Made by a program: the position numbers and the translations under genes
The notes under the pieces: generated by a model
What the model saw: only the letters and a program-made list of their open reading frames with translations
Database searches by the model: none
What the model was told of the DNA's origin: nothing
DNA from: Escherichia phage ECML-359
Sequence record: OL631482.1
Direction: 5' to 3' (one strand)
DNA: 64,000 bases
In this document: piece by piece, positions 2,992 to 42,151 of the stretch
How positions within the stretch are numbered: the stretch's first letter is position 1
Layout of the letters: the number at the start of each line of letters is the position of its first letter

Positions 2992-4819
2992 GTGTCGCAT
3001 TCATCCAATCTTTACGCTGCTGGGAATCTTTACCGAAGAGCATTTCGAACAGTTCTTTCCAGTTGTCGGGCAATTGAACAACTTCGAATACAGGTTCGAG
3101 CAATACGCGTTTGTACTCAGCATCTTCCAGAGAACCAAGTCCCTTTATATATCTGATAGTATGCTTCGGAAGTTTATCCTTAGCTTCTTCATAATCAGGA
3201 AGAGAATAAAACCATTCTTGTTTATCTTTGAGCTGCGCAATAATAACAGGAGTTTTCACAAAGCGAATTCGTCCTTCATGGAACAGCTCTGGCCAGTTAC
3301 TGAAAAACGCCAATAACGATGGATAGATACTACCGACACCATCCACATCCGCATCTGTCATGATAGCAATGTTTCGGTAATTCATATTCTCGGCCGGTTG
3401 TCCAATCGTTAACCCAGTAATTGCACACACATCAAAGGCTTCGGCGTTCTTCATAACATCAACAGCTTTCAGGCCCCATGTGTTTTTAAACTTACCACGT
3501 AACGGATAAGCACCTTGCAATTCACGGTCGCGAACCTTGATAAATGGCCCGGTTGCAGAATCACCTTCGGTCAGGAACAGAGTCGTTTCCAGCTTATCAT
3601 TGCCCCATTCGTTGGCCTTGATATGCTTTTGCACCTTGGCCTTTGAAGCTTTCTTATTCGCCTTGGTCTCTGCTGCTTTCTCTGCAGCCAATTTACGGGC
3701 TAATGCAGCTTCAACAATCGGCATAATCAGCGGTTCATTTTTCAGAATAGCTTGCGCGATTTTCTTGGCATCAATCTTAATGTGATTTCGAATTTCACCA
3801 GCCGGAGAAGTCAATCGCTCCTTAGTCTGGGAATCAAATCGCATGTTGCTCATATCGCGAATGAACATAAGCATGGTGAGGCATTCCTTAACTCGTGCCT
3901 TTGTCACCTCAATGCCTTTATATTTGCGTTTAATGGCTGGCTGAAGATGTTCACAGATATCATCCATAACACATTCAACGTGGTGTCCACCATTCTTTGT
4001 ATGAATGTTGTTGACATAAGTCAACTGGCGGAAACCATCCGGGCTAGTCGTAAAGGCCATCGATACTGTATCAGTTTCCTGGATAACAACTTCGGTTCCG
4101 AATTGCTTGGCGAACTTCTTGAAATTGCCATCAACCTTTTTACCATTAAAGGTAAACTGAATATCTGGATAAACAACCGCAAGAGTCTGCAGACGGTCCA
4201 ATGTAATATCCAGATAAATCCGGGACAGGCTATTTTCTTCAAAGTGACTGAAGTCCGGAACAAAAATAACAGTTGTACCTTTACCCTTAGATTTCTTGGT
4301 AGACCAACCTTTGTTTTCCATACCATTGGAGCAGTTAACGGTGATTTCATTTGCGCCGTCGGCGGTAATCCCGGTGAACAATACAGAGAAAATATTGGTC
4401 AGAGAAGACCCGACGCCATTCATCCCACCAGTTTTACGTTCAGCATCATCACCGAAGTTACCACCTGCTTTTGGAATAGTCCATGCTGCAACCGGGCCAG
4501 GGATTTGTTCACCGTTTTGGTCTGTAACCATTGCTTGTGGAATACCACGGCCATTATCGGAAACCGAAATCTGATTATCTTTAATTTGGACATCAATTTT
4601 ATTGGCAAATTTAAAACTGGTGCGAATTGCTTCATCAACAGAGTTATCGATAATTTCATCAATCAGTTTTACAATACCAGGAACATAGCTTACGGACTTA
4701 TATTCACCAAACAAGAATCGCTCATGCGCTTCATTTGAACTGGAACCAATATACATCCCGGAACGTTTTTTGATATGCTCGACGTCCGAGAGTACTTTAA
4801 TTTCATTATTAATCATCAT
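2987..4819 (-). CDS. 39: DNA topoisomerase II large subunit (gp39 with gp60-equivalent region fused, 610 aa)
   Basis: GyrB-like ATPase/TOPRIM motifs (GMYIGSS, DNGRGIP); single uninterrupted ORF. Confidence 0.9.
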   Translation of the reverse strand: MMINNEIKVLSDVEHIKKRSGMYIGSSSNEAHERFLFGEYKSVSYVPGIVKLIDEIIDNSVDEAIRTSFKFANKIDVQIKDNQISVSDNGRGIPQAMVTDQNGEQIPGPVAAWTIPKAGGNFGDDAERKTGGMNGVGSSLTNIFSVLFTGITADGANEITVNCSNGMENKGWSTKKSKGKGTTVIFVPDFSHFEENSLSRIYLDITLDRLQTLAVVYPDIQFTFNGKKVDGNFKKFAKQFGTEVVIQETDTVSMAFTTSPDGFRQLTYVNNIHTKNGGHHVECVMDDICEHLQPAIKRKYKGIEVTKARVKECLTMLMFIRDMSNMRFDSQTKERLTSPAGEIRNHIKIDAKKIAQAILKNEPLIMPIVEAALARKLAAEKAAETKANKKASKAKVQKHIKANEWGNDKLETTLFLTEGDSATGPFIKVRDRELQGAYPLRGKFKNTWGLKAVDVMKNAEAFDVCAITGLTIGQPAENMNYRNIAIMTDADVDGVGSIYPSLLAFFSNWPELFHEGRIRFVKTPVIIAQLKDKQEWFYSLPDYEEAKDKLPKHTIRYIKGLGSLEDAEYKRVLLEPVFEVVQLPDNWKELFEMLFGKDSQQRKDWMNATL

Positions 4820-4841
4820 CTTTCCTCTTGTGTATGGAGGT

Positions 4842-4867
4842 ATTATAAGTCACATATTTTAAAGCAA
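4842..4867 (-). promoter_or_regulatory. MotA-box middle promoter (tTGCTTTA, 12 nt, TATAAT) upstream of gene 39
   Basis: Minus-strand reading TTTTTGCTTTAaaatatgtgactTATAAT; box overlaps terminator T tract. Confidence 0.5.
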
Positions 4868-4886
4868 AAAGGCCCGAAGGCCTTTT
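4866..4886 (-). terminator. hairpin GGCC-cgaa-GGCC with flanking A/T runs
   Basis: Perfect stem between gene 39 start and upstream gene stop. Confidence 0.55.
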
Positions 4887-5286
4887 ATTTGAATCGAAGC
4901 TGCTCTAACATTTTAATAGCTTGTAGGCGCCCGGCTTCAGTTTTAACCGTAATAATAACATCGCCACCGGTAACAACGATATCCTCTTTTGATTCCTGTT
5001 CGGTTATTTCAGAATCACATTCCTTTGGGGTTTCTTCAAAATATTTAAATTCATCACCAAAAATAAGACCGGTTCCATTACGACTATGGAAAGAAAATCC
5101 AGTTCCATCGATAGTACTAAATTCCGTCACAACATTTGCTTCCATCTTGGTGACTGAAAACTCTTTGGTAGTAATCAAATCAATGATAGAGGTTCCTTGC
5201 TGGTTCAAAATGCAACCGGGCATACCGACATGTTTAAGGAAGCCATCTAAATCTTTAATGCAATAACTCTTTCCAATTTTAAACAT
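4885..5286 (-). CDS. hypothetical protein (about 133 aa from MFKIGKSYC...)
   Basis: ORF-track ORF 4885-5463; start moved to internal ATG with GAGGA site just after the lipoprotein stop. Confidence 0.45.
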   Translation of the reverse strand: MFKIGKSYCIKDLDGFLKHVGMPGCILNQQGTSIIDLITTKEFSVTKMEANVVTEFSTIDGTGFSFHSRNGTGLIFGDEFKYFEETPKECDSEITEQESKEDIVVTGGDVIITVKTEAGRLQAIKMLEQLRFK

Positions 5287-5293
5287 AATATCC

Positions 5294-5554
5294 TCATTCA
5301 AATCGGATGGTTGAATTCTTGAACAACAAACCAGAACAAACAGTTCCTTCAACTTTCTTACCAGTTGGACCCACGGCCGTAAAGCCTGTGTGTTGGAAAT
5401 CATCTTTACCACAAGAGAACCAATTATATCCGGTGATTTGGATTTGCTCATAGCCGTTTGCATCTAATACACGAATGGCGTTATCTGCATCAGTACAACC
5501 AGCTAATGAAACCGCCAGCACCAGCGCTGCAATAGAACGATTAATGTATTTCAT
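5294..5554 (-). CDS. putative lipoprotein (86 aa)
   Basis: N-terminal signal peptide with lipobox LAGC (MKYINRSIAALVLAVSLAGC). Confidence 0.55.
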   Translation of the reverse strand: MKYINRSIAALVLAVSLAGCTDADNAIRVLDANGYEQIQITGYNWFSCGKDDFQHTGFTAVGPTGKKVEGTVCSGLLFKNSTIRFE

Positions 5555-8021: not shown

Positions 8022-8705
8022 TTATCGTTTTTTCGGTAAAGATAACGGGTCTGCATCTTCTTCGGAAGGAACTTCATCCAAACCAAGAGCATAGCGCTGG
8101 GCATACTTAAGCATCAAAATATCTTTCGCGCAGTCATGCACCGAATCATGCGCCACAAATCCATCTAAAGTCCCCTTTGGTAATGGAGTTTCACACATCT
8201 TACGGACGAGTGATAGGGCTTCGATTGCTGTCCTGATATCTCGCTGGTTCCAGAATACAACCGGCTCCAGGCCATAGGTATTCAATTCACGCTCGGGAAT
8301 ACCCTCATTGCGCTGTAGGTCACGGATAAGGTCAACAAACAACGGGAAGTCAAAAGACATTCCACGACACCACATAAGGCTTTCGTATTTGTTAATTCCA
8401 TTACCATTCAGATAATCAATTGCCTGTTGGATACCGGTCAGAGTATCAACATCTTGCGCAGAAGGAGCCAAGTTAACACGGGCTTCTGCTGATTGCTTTT
8501 TCCACCAACCCATGGTTGTTGTATCGAACAGACGCTTACCTTTTTGGTATTCAAGGCTAAACTTGATACGTTTGCCGCGATTAACCAGGGTTTCGAATGA
8601 TTCCACAATAGCAGGGTCAGATTCGAATGTAATCAGAGCCAGGTCAATAACGGCTCCCTTCGAGCCGTTTCCCAGAGTTTCAAAGTCAATAATAGCATCA
8701 ATCAT
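8022..8705 (-). CDS. dexA: exonuclease A (227 aa)
   Basis: Size and position match T4 DexA; DEDD-type exonuclease-like N-terminus (IIDFETLG). Confidence 0.75.
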   Translation of the reverse strand: MIDAIIDFETLGNGSKGAVIDLALITFESDPAIVESFETLVNRGKRIKFSLEYQKGKRLFDTTTMGWWKKQSAEARVNLAPSAQDVDTLTGIQQAIDYLNGNGINKYESLMWCRGMSFDFPLFVDLIRDLQRNEGIPERELNTYGLEPVVFWNQRDIRTAIEALSLVRKMCETPLPKGTLDGFVAHDSVHDCAKDILMLKYAQRYALGLDEVPSEEDADPLSLPKKR

Positions 8706-8782
8706 CGCACATCTCTTTTAATTTTTGAATTTCACCAGCAACCATCGCACATCTCTTTTAATTTCTGAATTTCACCAGCAAC
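8703..8782. repeat. perfect-but-one 40-bp tandem duplication (2 copies) spanning the dexA start codon and upstream gene 3' end
   Basis: catcgcacatctcttttaattt[t/c]tgaatttcaccagcaac repeated head to tail. Confidence 0.85.
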
Positions 8783-9013
8783 ATAGTCGGAGATAAAAAT
8801 CCCTGGCTCTTCATTGTTAAAATATTCAATCGCGGCCATACGTTTCCGAATAAGATTCAGTTCCAGCAAAACGTAATTACCCTGCACGACGATAGTCGGA
8901 TTATCTTCGAAAAATTCAACCGCGTCCTGAATACCATAGATAAGATTATCTAAATCTTCTTTATGTACTTTATACATAATATGCGTCGTACCTCGCTCGT
9001 GTGATTCCAACAT
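8732..9013 (-). CDS. hypothetical protein (probable start at internal Met near 8977)
   Basis: Minus ORF between dda and dexA; C-terminus encoded by the tandem duplication. Confidence 0.4.
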   Translation of the reverse strand: MLESHERGTTHIMYKVHKEDLDNLIYGIQDAVEFFEDNPTIVVQGNYVLLELNLIRKRMAAIEYFNNEEPGIFISDYVAGEIQKLKEMCDGCW

Positions 9014-10298
9014 AAGCCAACTGGCTCGCTAATGAAGCTTCGGCCATATGGATGCATGGAGTATAGATGAATGCTTTGTCCACTGAAACGCCCTGTGCCT
9101 TATGGATTGTACTGACCGGAAGAGCACGGACTTTCAAGAAGGTCCTGCGCGCTTTCCAGAAGTCTTTCCACTCTGGACGTTTACCAGCGGCTTTCATCTG
9201 TTTGTATGTGTCAGCAACTTTCGCCAGATATGCCTGGAATTTTGGTTGCTGGTCTTCTGGTAAAACTTTAATGCGGTCAACCTGATATTCTTCATCTTCA
9301 TCAATTGACTCAACTTCCAGGTCCCAGTAATTAATCACTAACTGGTGCGATTCGCCTTTACAACGGAGAATGGTGGAAGTGTATTTGCAATCCTTGATGC
9401 GAACCAACTGACCATTATTAAAAATGGTTTCGCTGAATTTCTTACCTTCAAATTCCAGCTCTTTCATGTGCGGCTCTTGCATAACCAGGACTTCATACGG
9501 TAAAAATGCTTTATCCGTTTCATAGAGCTTGCGACGAATAATATTGTTCAGTTTTTCAACTGATTTATTCGTGTATGCATACATCCTGTTTTCCATCAAC
9601 ATATCAGCATCTTTTACAATACTGAAATAGTTTACCATGAAATCCTTTAAAGCGGTTTGTGAGGTGAAACCTTGCACGCCATGGCCTTCATACATACAGT
9701 CGCGAAACCAGCCGCCATTGCGAATTTCTGTCGCCACTTCAATGATAGGAGCATTGCTTCGCATGACCTCAGTCAAATGAATCTGTTTGAACTTAGGGTG
9801 CGTAAAGAATGGACTTATCTTTTGTTGTGTACTTCCTGGGTCAACCGGCTGCAGCTGGTGCATATCACCAATCCCAAGAATAGTACACCATTCAGGAACA
9901 GAGTTAAGAATAATCTTAAACAGAGACCCGTCATACATACTTGCTTCATCACAAACCAGAACATTACATTTTGACATGTCAGGCATTTCGCGCTGTTCAA
10001 AAACGTTTTGGTCTTCATATGTCGTTGGGTTAATCTTCAAGATACTATGGATTGTATTCGCTGTTTGACCAGACAATTTAGATAAAACTTTTTTCGCCTG
10101 GTGAGTTGGTGCAGCAAGCACAATTCCCATAACTCCATTACGCACTAAGTGGTCAATGACAAATTTTGTCAGAGTGGTCTTACCTGTGCCAGCTGGACCA
10201 TTCAGAGTGATACATTCCCCTGAACGTCGCTGAATAGCTTCAGTAATATAATCAAAAGCTTCTTTTTGTCCTGTGTTCAAGTCTTCAAATTTAATCAT
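8970..10298 (-). CDS. dda: Dda DNA helicase (SF1B, 442 aa)
   Basis: Walker A GPAGTGKT, Walker B-like VLVCDEASM, SF1 helicase motifs. Confidence 0.85.
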   Translation of the reverse strand: MIKFEDLNTGQKEAFDYITEAIQRRSGECITLNGPAGTGKTTLTKFVIDHLVRNGVMGIVLAAPTHQAKKVLSKLSGQTANTIHSILKINPTTYEDQNVFEQREMPDMSKCNVLVCDEASMYDGSLFKIILNSVPEWCTILGIGDMHQLQPVDPGSTQQKISPFFTHPKFKQIHLTEVMRSNAPIIEVATEIRNGGWFRDCMYEGHGVQGFTSQTALKDFMVNYFSIVKDADMLMENRMYAYTNKSVEKLNNIIRRKLYETDKAFLPYEVLVMQEPHMKELEFEGKKFSETIFNNGQLVRIKDCKYTSTILRCKGESHQLVINYWDLEVESIDEDEEYQVDRIKVLPEDQQPKFQAYLAKVADTYKQMKAAGKRPEWKDFWKARRTFLKVRALPVSTIHKAQGVSVDKAFIYTPCIHMAEASLASQLAYVGITRARYDAYYV

Positions 10299-10594
10299 GC
10301 CAATTTTACTCGCTTAACATATAAAGTATCTAAAATTAATTTCAATTCTCGTGCGTGTTCTTCAGTAGGAAAAACAGTTTTTGTTTCCCACTTATCAAAC
10401 CACCATTTTCTAGGTGTGCATACTGTTTCAATACGTCCCATGCGTAAATAGCGGCTTGTAGTATATGAATAGTTAGCAAGTTCATATTCTGCGCCCACTT
10501 TTGTGGTGTATAAGGTAACCTTTCCATCATACTCCAATGGGTGTTCAAAACCATCTTTATCTTTGTGGACCAGCACATATGCGTAGTACATCAC
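10295..10594 (-). CDS. hypothetical protein (dda.1 position)
   Basis: 99 aa minus ORF overlapping dda start. Confidence 0.45.
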   Translation of the reverse strand: MMYYAYVLVHKDKDGFEHPLEYDGKVTLYTTKVGAEYELANYSYTTSRYLRMGRIETVCTPRKWWFDKWETKTVFPTEEHARELKLILDTLYVKRVKLA

Positions 10595-10595
10595 A

Positions 10596-11339
10596 TTAAC
10601 CTCTAATCAGTTTAAAAATTGACGCGTTCAAAGGCAGACCACGTTTCAGTTTAAGGCGGTCAATGAATGACAACTTATCTAAACGCTCCAGACCTTGAAT
10701 AATTTTATCATACATATCGTAACGCGTTTCAGCGTCAGATGATTTCATTTTCAGACGCCAGTCAGGACCACCCATAACCATTTTCAGCCCACGTTGACTA
10801 GTTCCGATGGAAGCCATTTGTCCATGGATACGAGCCTTGACTGCAATCACAGAAGGGGTGGTATCTTTAGCGCCACTTTTATAAAGCTCTTTTAAATGTT
10901 TTTGACGCTTCTTGATTCCACGCTCGGTATCTTTAATATTTTTAACAATTTTGCGAATTTTATAATAGTCAGCGGGAGTTACTTTAAAACTATTGGGCAT
11001 CTTAGAACCGCCATTAATACGCACCGCCAAACGAGTCTGTGCACGTTTAAGTTCATCAAGAGATAAATCAGCACGTAAACCGTTGTACTTAGTTTTGACA
11101 GGGATAACATTGCCTTCAATATAACCTATATCATTGTTAAAGCGTTCAAAGGAAACTTTATCTTGAGTTGAATTTTCATCAAAACGTTCACCAGAATACG
11201 CACAGAATTCTTGTTTCAAAAGATTGGCGATATACTTACTAGACAGATTGAAATCCTTGTTACGACGTTTTGCAGACGTTTTGGTATGCTCGCGACGTTT
11301 GTAAACTTTTAATTCAAACTCTTCTTTTGACATATTCAT
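10596..11339 (-). CDS. srd: Srd-position protein (247 aa) with degenerate HNH-like motif
   Basis: Position between dda.1 and modA as in T4; motif CAYSGERF...SFERFNNDIGYIEGNVIPV resembles HNH core lacking Cys/His ligands. Confidence 0.45.
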   Translation of the reverse strand: MNMSKEEFELKVYKRREHTKTSAKRRNKDFNLSSKYIANLLKQEFCAYSGERFDENSTQDKVSFERFNNDIGYIEGNVIPVKTKYNGLRADLSLDELKRAQTRLAVRINGGSKMPNSFKVTPADYYKIRKIVKNIKDTERGIKKRQKHLKELYKSGAKDTTPSVIAVKARIHGQMASIGTSQRGLKMVMGGPDWRLKMKSSDAETRYDMYDKIIQGLERLDKLSFIDRLKLKRGLPLNASIFKLIRG

Positions 11340-11414
11340 GATATTTTTCTCATCTTACGGACGTGAATAACTCAGTACGGAATCATTATATACTATTCAT
11401 CTTTCATGTACACC
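11340..11414 (-). promoter_or_regulatory. PeSL-like early promoter cassette (variant B leader)
   Basis: GTGTACA ... TATAAT followed by GATTCCGTACTGAGTTA leader. Confidence 0.55.
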
Positions 11415-12692: not shown

Positions 12693-12749
12693 AATGGTCT
12701 CTCTGTTGTAAGAAAGACCATTATGTCATTAGGAGGGGAGTAAGTAAAC
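12693..12749 (-). promoter_or_regulatory. early promoter (GTTTAC -35, CATAAT -10) with stem-loop GGTCTTTCTT...AGAGAGACC
   Basis: Read directly upstream of modB. Confidence 0.5.
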
Positions 12750-13024
12750 TACTTAAACACTCCAAGTGGAACGCCAAAGACTGCAATGTCTACGGCCATG
12801 CCAATAGGAGATTGATATGATGAGTTAGGAGATTGATATGATGAGTAAGAACTTTTCGATTCTGTCGGTCGTTCGGCTTTAATTGTCTCGGATTCAGTCT
12901 TAAGCCTTTGTAACCGATTAATTTTTTGTTGCTCGATTTCCTTATGAGCATGTTTACGGTCGATATCCAGCGCCGATGTGGGAATATTTGTTAACCAGTT
13001 CATTGTTTCACCCATGGTGCCCAT
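12749..13024 (-). CDS. hypothetical protein with Ser/Tyr-rich repeat and C-terminal hydrophobic segment
   Basis: ...SSYQSPNSSYQSPIGMAVDIAVFGVPLGVFK; contains 21-bp tandem repeat. Confidence 0.4.
   Translation of the reverse strand: MGTMGETMNWLTNIPTSALDIDRKHAHKEIEQQKINRLQRLKTESETIKAERPTESKSSYSSYQSPNSSYQSPIGMAVDIAVFGVPLGVFK
12805..12846. repeat. perfect 21-bp tandem repeat x2 (taggagattgatatgatgagt)
   Basis: In-frame duplication encoding SSYQSPN/SSYQSPI. Confidence 0.8.
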
Positions 13025-26029: not shown

Positions 26030-26257
26030 TTAAATTTCTATTGTACGCCGTTCGATGGTTGGATTACCCTTTTCATCTTTAGTTCTAACCATAGCCTGGA
26101 AGGCTCTCTGTCCAGGATGCAATAATTTATTGAGTTCCTTTTGAAATTCTATTTGAAGTTCTTCGGAAAGGTCAAAAATAGTTTGAGTTGGGGAAAGTCC
26201 ATATATTTCTTTAAGGCGTTCGCATGTTTCAATTTCATGCTTCATATCAATTACCAA
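26030..26257 (-). CDS. hypothetical protein (75 aa)
   Basis: Minus ORF between regA and 43. Confidence 0.4.
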   Translation of the reverse strand: MVIDMKHEIETCERLKEIYGLSPTQTIFDLSEELQIEFQKELNKLLHPGQRAFQAMVRTKDEKGNPTIERRTIEI

Positions 26258-26615
26258 TTGTATATTTGGCTACGAGCTTCCAGTCGTCTTTTTGTTTAAA
26301 GGAGATAACACGGAAGTTGTTTGTTACTGCGAACAATTCATTATGCTCTTCTTCTTTGATAGTGATTAAGCCCCAGTCTTCGAGCAGTTGAGCAATGGAA
26401 TCACGGCGCTGATAGTCTTCACCATCAATATCTACCTGGCGACCATCCATACGCAGCATTTCTTTGAAGTGAACAATATAGTAACGACCTTGCTTCTGGA
26501 GGATGTGGCAGCTCTGGTACAGCACACGGTCTTTATTATTTGCGATGCCCATACGGGTCAGAGTTTCTTTAACTTTCAGGAAGTCTTCAGGTTGCTTTAA
26601 TGTAATTTCAATCAT
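26247..26615 (-). CDS. regA: RegA translational repressor (122 aa)
   Basis: Size and sequence pattern of T4 RegA; position next to 62. Confidence 0.85.
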   Translation of the reverse strand: MIEITLKQPEDFLKVKETLTRMGIANNKDRVLYQSCHILQKQGRYYIVHFKEMLRMDGRQVDIDGEDYQRRDSIAQLLEDWGLITIKEEEHNELFAVTNNFRVISFKQKDDWKLVAKYTIGN

Positions 26616-26616
26616 T

Positions 26617-27195
26617 TTACCATTCCAATATTTGTTTTTTAATTTCTTTTTGTTCTTTCACATTACTGGTAACGGTCTTTAAGAATTCATCCGTTACCAG
26701 ACCTTTTGTCTTTTTCAAAACATCTTTAAGACTACCTTTGACTTTCAATGTTTCCATATACATCAAAGCATCATCTGCATTAATTGTATAATATTTCATT
26801 AAAAGCTTTAACACAAGCTGGACGTTGACCGCATCCGGCTCAGCCTTTGCCCATTTGCCATAACGCTTGCCTTGTGGAACTGCATGCAGCAAATAATTAT
26901 AATGCTGTTGGTCTGTTAACCCGGAACCGATTAAGTTCATCACATTTACCTGCATGATACAATCGACATGTTGGCTCAATGCGTTTTCCAACCAGAATTT
27001 ATTGTAGTTTTCCGATTGAATCAGGTTTCGTGGTTTTTTACTAACGGTTATATCATTAAGAATCGCGAACAATTCATTTTCTGCTTTCTCTTTGTATGAA
27101 TCGGACAATTCCTGAATTTTGTTAAAGTCGCGTGATTTCCACGCAACCTCATGTTCGTTTAATTGAACGTCATCATCAAAGAGACTTACAGCCAT
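26617..27195 (-). CDS. 62: clamp loader small subunit gp62
   Basis: 192 aa ORF between regA and 44. Confidence 0.75.
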   Translation of the reverse strand: MAVSLFDDDVQLNEHEVAWKSRDFNKIQELSDSYKEKAENELFAILNDITVSKKPRNLIQSENYNKFWLENALSQHVDCIMQVNVMNLIGSGLTDQQHYNYLLHAVPQGKRYGKWAKAEPDAVNVQLVLKLLMKYYTINADDALMYMETLKVKGSLKDVLKKTKGLVTDEFLKTVTSNVKEQKEIKKQILEW

Positions 27196-28145
27196 TTCAT
27201 TTCCCCAGCCAGTTGAGCAAACAGATAAGTCAAGTGAACTTCGGTATTAGCTGCAATGCCATGGTACTGATTATTCTCACCCACAATCTCATACATACGG
27301 ATGATGCTTGCACCAGTCAGTTTGCCGTACATTTCATCAGCCAGCTTTGCAATGAAGTTTGAATAATCATTTGCATGCTTAGGAGCCAGACCACGGAGAA
27401 CTTTAAAGTTACGGTCCTTAAGGGCATCAATCACATCATCAATTGGCGTGCGATTGTTTGTCACGATACTCAGAATACCGGAATCGATAACACCCTTTGC
27501 AGAGTAACGGTCAAGCTCATTAATTGTCTTACGCAGGTCCGGGAAGTTATGCTTAACCAGAGCAGCAACAACTTTCAGGTCTTCGATTTCAACGCCTTCG
27601 TTTTTACATATCGCGACTGCACGATGAATCATCTCTTTCATCATAGTGGTCTGGTCAGCTGGAGTTGCTTCACCAAACTTAATTACGCGACAACGAGACT
27701 GCAACGGAGTGATGATGCCATCGATATTGTTCGCGGTCATAATGATTGAACAGTTGCTCGAATAAGCTTCCATAAAGCTACGAAGGTGTCGTTGTGATTC
27801 AGCCAGCCCCGCGCGGTCAAACTCATCGATAACGATTACCTTGCGGCGGCCTTCGATTGATTTAGATGATGCAAAGCGAGTCAATTCATTACGCACAAAG
27901 TCAATTCGGCAATCGGAGCCGTTAACAAACAGCATATCGGAATTCGTATCTGCGCACATAGCTTTTGCAACTGTCGTCTTACCAGTACCAGGGGAACTAC
28001 TGACCAGAATCAAGTTAGGAATCAAACCTTTTTTAACAATCGCCTCTAATGTTTCTTTATCATGAGCCGGGAGAATACACTCTGATAATGTGCCTGGGCG
28101 GTATTTTTGTTCCCACATGAATTCTTTGTCATTAACCGTTAACAT
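27186..28145 (-). CDS. 44: clamp loader large subunit gp44 (AAA+, 319 aa)
   Basis: Walker A SPGTGKTT, Walker B VIVIDEFD. Confidence 0.9.
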   Translation of the reverse strand: MLTVNDKEFMWEQKYRPGTLSECILPAHDKETLEAIVKKGLIPNLILVSSSPGTGKTTVAKAMCADTNSDMLFVNGSDCRIDFVRNELTRFASSKSIEGRRKVIVIDEFDRAGLAESQRHLRSFMEAYSSNCSIIMTANNIDGIITPLQSRCRVIKFGEATPADQTTMMKEMIHRAVAICKNEGVEIEDLKVVAALVKHNFPDLRKTINELDRYSAKGVIDSGILSIVTNNRTPIDDVIDALKDRNFKVLRGLAPKHANDYSNFIAKLADEMYGKLTGASIIRMYEIVGENNQYHGIAANTEVHLTYLFAQLAGEMKWL

Positions 28146-33453: not shown

Positions 33454-33765
33454 TTATTTACTAATGCCATTTACGATTTCCCAAATTTGTTTGCGAGTAG
33501 TTTCCCACATCAACTTAATCAGGTCTTCCGTAACTGGTTGGCGGTAAATTCCACGCAGTTTAACTAAAGCATATTTGTATGCTTCAAAATTGTTTTCCAG
33601 CACTGCCCCTTGAGCATGCTTATTCAGTCGTGCAATTTCACGAGCATTCTTTTTCAGAATCTTTGCCGCTTGACTCTGTGCTTCGAGTGCGTTCGCTTCT
33701 TCGAGACGTTCCTGTGCTTCTTCAATCTGCTTATCGGTCAGTTGAGAAATATCTGGAGCTTGCAT
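33454..33765 (-). CDS. hypothetical protein (103 aa)
   Basis: Minus ORF in 47-55 interval where T4 carries alpha-gt. Confidence 0.4.
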   Translation of the reverse strand: MQAPDISQLTDKQIEEAQERLEEANALEAQSQAAKILKKNAREIARLNKHAQGAVLENNFEAYKYALVKLRGIYRQPVTEDLIKLMWETTRKQIWEIVNGISK

Positions 33766-41966: not shown

Positions 41967-42151
41967 AATTCCACCATAAATTCAAATAACTGGTCGCGTA
42001 CACAAGTATCAGTCCAACCCCATTCGTTGGCTTCTTCTTTTAACCAATCCGGGAGATTTGCCAATACGGTTTCTTTACTAGGCGCAGGAGTATCAAACTC
42101 TCTTGCAAACTCTCTTGCGCAGGTTTTATAGGCCATATCAAATTCGGTCAT
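41963..42151 (-). CDS. hypothetical protein (62 aa)
   Basis: Minus ORF. Confidence 0.35.
   Translation of the reverse strand: MTEFDMAYKTCAREFAREFDTPAPSKETVLANLPDWLKEEANEWGWTDTCVRDQLFEFMVEL

Follow-up and report, generated by a model that had tools for sequence, protein, structure and literature searches.

Genes and repeat structure at the dexA junction

The window analyzed here is the whole stretch of 64,000 nt from Escherichia phage ECML-359 (OL631482.1), which is a Gaprivervirus, i.e., an SP18/VR7-like relative of T4. The genes considered here lie on the minus strand, where dda, a small ORF and dexA follow one another in that order as a tightly packed run. The first gene, dda (8970-10298, minus strand), encodes a 442-aa helicase, as indicated by the annotations of relatives and by Pfam PIF1/AAA_30. 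The last gene, dexA (8022-8705, minus strand), encodes exonuclease A, a protein of 227 aa (PF16473, E=7e-16; phrog_255 'exonuclease', E=6.5e-75; DexA in relatives' annotations). Between them lies a Y00H/DexA.2-like ORF (8732-8977, minus strand; 81 aa from M13), which matches phrog_5263 over residues 13-90 (E=4.8e-32). A precomputed annotation assigns this ORF to family PF26837 (Phage_T4_Y00H_G), and some records name it 'DexA.2-like'. A Pfam-A profile search returned no match for the ORF although the precomputed annotation gives PF26837; this family is evidently newer than the Pfam-A version searched.

The ATG of the small ORF (8975-8977) overlaps the dda stop codon by 8 nt (ATGTATAA, 8970-8977). 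Because of this overlap, and because phrog_5263 aligns from residue 13, the real start is probably M13 at 8977 (81 aa) rather than the alternative start at 9013 (93 aa). GenBank entries are inconsistent on this point and place the start at the ATG at 9013 in some records (91/93 aa) and at the ATG at 8977 in others (79/81 aa).

Tandem Repeats Finder reported a repeat of period 40 at 8699-8782 (2.1 copies, 95% matches, score 154). When the whole window was scanned with the 40-mer, two matches were found, both on the minus strand, at 8743-8782 (0 mismatches) and 8703-8742 (1 mismatch), compared to 0.00 expected from shuffled sequence. The copies stand head-to-tail with nothing between them, and the array totals 80 bp, which is below standard read length. 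Read on the coding strand, the junction is ...GACTAT / GTTGCTGGTGAAATTCAGAAATTAAAAGAGATGTGCGATG / GTTGCTGGTGAAATTCAAAAATTAAAAGAGATGTGCGATG / ATTGATGCT..., with the phase of the repeat ambiguous by 3 nt (TTG). The sole mismatch between the copies (plus strand T at 8725 vs C at 8765) corresponds to unit position 18 of the coding strand, A vs G.

The upstream copy (8743-8782, minus strand; GTTGCTGGTGAAATTCAGAAATTAAAAGAGATGTGCGATG on the coding strand) codes for VAGEIQKLKEMCD, the conserved helix at the C terminus of the Y00H/DexA.2-like product. Duplicates of the Shine-Dalgarno-like AAGAG of dexA and of the dexA ATG (8743-8745) lie in this copy as well, and its sequence is the same in 10 of 10 isolate carriers. 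Because the unit length is not a multiple of three (40 = 13x3 + 1), the ORF enters the downstream copy (8703-8742, minus strand) in a new frame and reads G-C-W-stop, so that the first 11 nt of this copy (8732-8742) supply (G)CW and the TGA stop codon (8732-8734). The following 26 nt (8706-8731) form a new non-coding spacer containing the AAGAG ribosome site of dexA, and the copy ends in the dexA ATG (8703-8705). In addition, the duplication created a putative mini-ORF of 15 codons (MVAGEIQKLKEMCDD*; 8698-8745, minus strand), which opens at the duplicated dexA ATG and terminates at a TGA (8698-8700) in the ancestral ATGATTGA sequence, where it overlaps the real start of dexA.

The original prediction described two 40-bp head-to-tail copies with a single mismatch, one of which supplied the ribosome site and ATG of dexA while the other encoded the end of the upstream gene. 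Tandem Repeats Finder and the 40-mer scan against shuffled sequence confirmed the repeat, the downstream copy is indeed the one that supplies the dexA ribosome site and ATG, and the gene assignments (dexA, and the upstream ORF ending ...KEMCDGCW* at 8732) stand. The end of the ORF is divided between the copies: the upstream copy gives VAGEIQKLKEMCD, but (G)CW and the TGA come from the downstream copy (8732-8742). The repeat was also said to straddle the start codon; in fact the downstream copy closes with the three bases of the ATG, which puts the end of the repeat at the dexA start.

Copy number among related phages and the ancestral junction

Megablast with positions 8500-9050 returned 33 records representing 27 distinct phages. 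Nine of the 27 carried two copies, visible as a 551-nt match in one piece (TH22, TH55, UPEC07, TH41, MN01, TH54, TH57, UPEC01 and VR20), and the other 18 carried one copy, visible as a 511-nt match in two pieces. The junctions were read directly at 26 isolate loci, including 25 retrieved relatives. In all one-copy relatives read, the junction was ...GAGATGTGCGATGATTGATGC; here the ORF closes with ...KEMCDD*, and its TGA and the ATG of dexA lie in an 8-nt overlap (ATGATTGA). This overlap is confined to the one-copy relatives, and in the window the ORF stop (8732-8734) and the dexA ATG (8703-8705) do not overlap.

The outgroup, Karamvirus CC31 from the next genus, has a 35%-identical homologue of the small ORF, which closes with ...VAGNIREFKEMT* and overlaps dexA by ATGA; the repeat is absent. 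The basal clade of VR7, VR25, TH15 and TH40 has one copy throughout. Taken together, the ATGATTGA overlap of the one-copy relatives, the ATGA overlap of CC31 and the one-copy basal clade indicate that the stop/start overlap is ancestral and the two-copy state derived. Comparison with relatives had been proposed as a check on the duplication, and it shows that copy number varies among these phages. It also supports the view that the gene junction holds a genuine tandem duplication, such as slippage or unequal recombination produces. The suggestion that the duplication could couple or uncouple the two reading frames is borne out insofar as the geometry that might underlie coupling is altered, from an 8-nt overlap to a 26-nt gap. 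The duplication likewise explains an annotation inconsistency, in that the same gene is recorded as 79, 81, 91 or 93 aa.

Occurrence of the two-copy allele in independent assemblies

In a collection of 15 billion proteins, 14+2 contigs carried the exact protein ending ...DGCW, and 24+19 contigs carried the same protein with the ending ...CDD. Among the 10 listed of 23 contigs with the DGCW form, dexA begins 27 nt after the ORF stop in every case, which corresponds to exactly two copies. These contigs were selected by exact protein identity, and their shared DGCW tail therefore says nothing about selection. Six of these 10 are independent ENA or Logan metagenome/SRA assemblies. The isolate carriers came from at least four laboratories and countries (Uganda, Bangladesh, Lithuania and, from sewage, the USA), and the metagenome assemblies were built with different assemblers. 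Among the 26 isolate loci and 7 metagenomic contigs only one and two copies were seen, with no three-copy or other form. Scans of IMG/VR returned VR20, VR25 and VR26 again and nothing further, and a metagenome scan returned a single contig with one copy.

Allelic variation and poor agreement with flank phylogeny

Variable positions of the 40-nt unit were typed on coding-strand numbering, which distinguished at least five two-copy alleles. Allele A, found in the window and most carriers, has G18 and C36 in the upstream copy and A18 and C36 in the downstream copy (39/40 identical). Allele B (VR20 and UPEC01) has the same upstream copy, with G18 and T36 downstream (39/40). In allele C (L039) both copies carry T36 and are identical (40/40). 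Allele D (L034 and L040) combines T36 upstream with T5, A18 and C36 downstream (37/40), and allele E (L038) combines C9 upstream with T5 downstream (38/40). In the ancestral frame, every substitution by which the copies can be told apart is a synonymous third-position change, and these variants are also found in one-copy genomes. The mini-ORF peptide varies, with an Ala to Val change in alleles D and E.

A18 was found only in downstream copies and in the one-copy phage M719-6WT.2, which is near-identical to the window over 5.5 kb and sits among window-like genomes. VR20 and UPEC01 have T36 in their downstream copies, and T36 also marks the single copy of DK-13, a phage that clusters with UPEC01. 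The nearest relatives of the window over 5.5 kb (M719-6WT.2, EAWsc9 and YenM_P8) are all one-copy phages. The haplotypes within 10-25 nt upstream of the repeat differ among carriers (TCTGATTAT in UPEC01 and L039, TCCGACTAT in the window and GGAATT in VR20), the flanks of carriers diverge by up to ~4% within 250 nt, and a 3-nt indel is present in the left flank among relatives.

In neighbour-joining trees built from either flank, 5-7 changes were needed to explain the duplication state, compared to 8.2 for shuffled states. The left and right flank trees were discordant, with TH41 and TH57 switching clades, and a sliding identity profile showed clear mosaicism among relatives. The duplication is inherited and present in about a third of the related phages, and its state barely tracks flank phylogeny. 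It had been called young and attributed to a recent event, a description that does not agree with the recovery of the same duplication across the USA, Uganda, Bangladesh, Lithuania and metagenomes, with flanks diverged to ~4%, or with the allele combinations, of which there are at least five, with 0-3 differences between the copies over the 40 sites.

Predicted consequences for the ORF tail and dexA initiation

In the alignment, residues V66, A67, I70, E75 and M76 of the small ORF are invariant even in CC31, and the residues after 'EM' are not conserved. AF2 modeling used an alignment of 4 sequences and gave one confident model of five (mean pLDDT 88.8, compared to 57-61 for the other four), in which the last helix spans residues 64-76 and the CDGCW tail is a lower-confidence coil. 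The change of tail is therefore likely to be tolerated, given the unconserved residues and the modeled coil. The new tail gains a CxxC motif.

The duplication leaves the initiation region of dexA unchanged over at least 37 nt before the ATG, so direct initiation should be unaltered. The overlap that would permit termination-reinitiation from the ORF is lost in the two-copy state, and a role for the mini-ORF as a translational relay to dexA is speculation. RNA folding at the junction gave no significant structure for either two copies (z = -0.04) or one copy (z = +0.23), and RNA structure sequestering or exposing the dexA ribosome site was rejected on these values. No promoter or terminator motif was found inside 8703-8782. 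A fusion of the ORF to DexA by translational bypass or frameshifting is excluded by the reading frames. We also rejected the idea that a cassette swap downstream of dexA (an 85-aa vs a 101-aa ORF) is tied to the duplication, because the DNA in that region is 98-100% identical in all relatives; at this identity the difference in length is not a replacement.

The window contains a complete regA gene, encoding the RegA translational repressor (26247-26615, minus strand; PF01818, E=4e-61), just downstream of gene 62 (26617-27195) and gene 44 (27186-28145), and SP18 also annotates regA. In T4, dexA is among the mRNAs repressed by RegA, whose sites are unstructured, A+U-rich stretches with a poly(A) tract on the 5' side and the AUG within them (PMC3014915). 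The duplicated unit contains an A+U-rich stretch (AAAUUCARAAAUUAAAAGAGAUG), includes AAAUUCA(A/G)AAAUUAAAAGAG and has a fold z of about 0, so that a doubled RegA operator or a decoy start is conceivable. The dexA AUG is, however, preceded by GUGCG, and the bases next to it are G/C-rich.

Origin and persistence of the duplication

We consider it probable that one old slippage or unequal-recombination event was followed by spread through recombination and by repeated collapse, leaving a probably near-neutral polymorphism. The starting point would have been the ATGATTGA junction, in which the stop codon of the ORF overlaps the ATG of dexA. One slipped-strand or unequal-recombination event, bounded by the 3-nt microhomology TTG, would have duplicated a segment consisting of the last 37 nt of the ORF and the dexA ATG. 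As the sequence shows, the ORF now extends through the first 11 nt of the second copy in a shifted frame, its tail has changed from ...CDD to ...CDGCW, and a 26-nt spacer stands in place of the overlap; dexA retains an intact ribosome site and start, and the 15-codon mini-ORF ends in the old overlap. The allele would have persisted as a common, probably near-neutral polymorphism, with homologous recombination carrying it between genome backgrounds. Recombination between the copies may occasionally collapse the array to one, and the survivor can then bear the downstream variant.

The boundary homology is short. Between the start of the unit (GTTGCTG) and the sequence after it (ATTGATG), TTG alone is shared (5/6 if an imperfect match is allowed), and a 3-nt match is expected by chance at about 1 per 64 positions. 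A single origin is favored because all carriers share period and position despite this weak guide, whereas independent events should vary in their end points. The presence of A18 in M719-6WT.2 and of T36 in DK-13 fits collapse to one copy. Since the adjacent haplotypes differ, a single origin needs crossovers very near or inside the repeat. The pattern of copy variants would fit equally well if two different one-copy genomes had crossed over unequally to give rise to the duplication, and an alternative is that the one-copy variants came first and the two-copy alleles were made more than once in this way. Near-neutrality is an assumption, and a frequency of about one-third over diverged backgrounds could instead reflect selection.

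A hot spot at which the same 40-bp duplication arises repeatedly and independently, e.g., by unequal crossing-over of co-infecting one-copy genomes, would account for a state nearly uncorrelated with flank phylogeny (5-7 changes vs 8.2 shuffled) and for haplotypes that differ directly beside the repeat among carriers. The copy-specific variants A18 and T36, each also present in a one-copy genome (M719-6WT.2 and DK-13/L029, respectively), would be explained as well, and the two identical copies of the L039 allele are what a fresh event would give. With only TTG at the boundary (5/6 for TTGCTG vs TTGATG), however, nothing obvious forces the same end points, yet 16 of 16 carriers are identical in period and position, and no other length and no three-copy form was seen. 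T4-like phages recombine heavily, and the left and right trees are discordant, so that no repeated gains are needed to account for the scatter. We regard recurrent duplication as improbable. The remaining non-biological explanation, an assembly or sequencing artefact in the ECML-359 genome, has as its sole basis that assemblers can in principle miscount short tandem repeats. Against it, exactly two copies are found in 9 isolate genomes and 6 metagenome/SRA assemblies, substitutions in five allele combinations distinguish the copies, and the 80-bp array fits inside a standard read. The original prediction had named an artefact as the outcome that would undo it; this possibility is rejected by 16 independent assemblies, each with exactly two copies, that carry distinguishing substitutions. 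An artefact is effectively refuted for the allele as such, and for the ECML-359 genome we give it almost no credence.

Two further explanations accept the duplication and assign it a function, in contrast to the single old event with near-neutral persistence that we prefer. In one, the two-copy allele is selectively maintained through re-tuned translation of dexA, so that the level or timing of DexA differs from that in one-copy phages. Re-tuning could follow from removal of termination-reinitiation coupling with the ORF, or from the added A+U-rich initiation region with its AUG, which might serve as a decoy start, as a mini-ORF relay or as an additional RegA site. Consistent with this, the ATGATTGA overlap is replaced by a 26-nt gap, the mini-ORF ends in the old overlap, and the Shine-Dalgarno sequence of dexA (AAGAG) appears weak, so that coupling could matter. 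RegA is encoded in the window (26247-26615), the unit holds AAAUUCA(G/A)AAAUUAAAAGAGAUG and is unstructured, and the allele is common, occurring in about one third of genomes and in many backgrounds. The real dexA start, however, keeps an identical 37-nt upstream context, from which direct initiation should stay the same, and each state is often found on protein and flank haplotypes that are otherwise identical, as would be seen for a neutral variant. The mini-ORF peptide is not conserved (Ala to Val in alleles D and E), control of dexA by RegA in Gaprivervirus is putative, and the GUGCG just 5' of the dexA AUG is not A+U-rich. On balance, we consider selective maintenance through dexA translation rather unlikely, though less so than a recurrent hot spot.

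The second functional explanation treats the repeat as a reversible, selectively maintained switch, in which gain and collapse of a copy would toggle dexA between a state coupled to the ORF and an uncoupled one, the latter with a doubled RegA-type operator and either a decoy start or the mini-ORF, preserving both DexA states and both ORF tails. If this were true, natural populations would keep both DexA expression states together with both Y00H-like tails, of which the CDGCW tail has a CxxC motif. Phase-variable contingency repeats have several copy-number states and switch at high frequency within a population. Here the scatter on the trees is compatible with switching and with recombination, and on present evidence this is probably not a phase-variable locus. 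We think a maintained switch very improbable.

Comparison with known systems

The repeat is a short tandem duplication of the well-known slippage/unequal-recombination kind. Slipped-strand mispairing and unequal recombination are familiar from the classic duplication and deletion genetics of the T4 rII region, and in T4 the dependence of recombination on homology drops off steeply at lengths under roughly 50 bp. Like the short tandem duplications of T-even phages, the ECML-359 repeat is head-to-tail without an insert, has a one-copy allele in relatives and a possible short microhomology at its boundary, and shows apparent reversion by recombination between copies. Unlike them, it lies exactly on a stop/start overlap and separates two overlapping genes that are both left intact, and it is no laboratory mutant but a common and long-lived polymorphism of natural phages. 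No description of this duplication was found in the searchable literature.

Translationally coupled overlaps, either ATGA or an 8-nt stop/start overlap, are common in the early and middle gene clusters of T4-like phages. The one-copy state has this layout both at dda/ORF (ATGTATAA) and at ORF/dexA (ATGATTGA), and CC31 has ATGA at ORF/dexA. The window differs in lacking the ORF/dexA overlap, and any putative coupling there would have to act across 26 nt or via the 15-codon mini-ORF. A possible likeness to the RegA operators of T4 can also be drawn: T4 dexA is a listed target, the unit is A+U-rich and unstructured with AUGs, and the window encodes RegA (PMC3014915 for the T4 operators). The bases just 5' of the dexA AUG are, unlike those of the T4 operators, G/C-rich, and we take the resemblance as a lead from the nucleotide sequence.

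PeSL mobile cassettes, consisting of an early promoter and a stem-loop and dispersed over several gene boundaries, reportedly mediate module shuffling in T4-type genomes, as is said to have been described by Arbiol and colleagues in 2010. The ECML-359 repeat resembles these cassettes in that a short sequence is repeated where two genes of a T4-type phage meet. It differs in having no promoter-like site or stem-loop and no further copy in the 64-kb window, and in being coding rather than intergenic. A dispersed repeat or PeSL-type cassette was rejected on these grounds: within the window the unit occurs only here, and it has no promoter, terminator or stem-loop. Bypassing of the gene 60 type, which calls for matched take-off and landing codons, a stop codon behind the take-off site, a stem-loop in the gap and a functional product, was rejected as well. 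Matched codons 40 nt apart are trivial in a duplicated segment, there is no significant structure, and a 40-nt hop would merely restore ...CDD*, which the one-copy allele produces with no need for bypass.

The biological weight of the duplication is small unless the one-copy and two-copy states differ in DexA expression. It is a clean natural case in which a tandem duplication resolves a stop/start overlap with neither gene damaged, and it offers a handy marker with which recombination and the collapse of copies can be followed in Gaprivervirus genomes. If the two states differ in dexA translation or in RegA control, they would offer a simple natural system for the study of translational coupling in T4-like phages.

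Other observations in the window and its relatives

A second tandem duplication lies at 12805-12846, within a minus-strand ORF (12749-13024). This repeat is perfect (21 bp x 2.0, 100% identity) and in frame, and it repeats seven residues of the 91-aa ORF (…YSSYQSP NSSYQSP…). Tandem Repeats Finder also reported a repeat of period 18 at 33676-33720 (2.5 copies, 75% match, 20% indels) and one of period 12 at 42094-42118 (2.1 copies, 100% match).

At ~10550-11340 (positions 251-1000 of the oriented 5.5-kb locus), the anti-sigma factor gene srd has two very different alleles among Gaprivervirus genomes that are otherwise 95-100% identical. In 250-nt windows of this gene, identity to the ECML-359 sequence was 47-77% in UPEC07, TH22, TH41, TH54, TH57, VR20, SP18 and others, and 97-100% in M719-6WT.2, EAWsc9, YenM_P8, P896, P479 and MN01. 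The difference looks like an allelic replacement with sharp borders. In the record of phage DCP80 (PQ671644.1, 140,978 bp), the gene after dexA runs into a 'terminase large subunit' and a 'tail sheath protein' at 3557-5511, where every other relative has motB.1/motB; this arrangement is probably a large deletion or a misassembly in the record.
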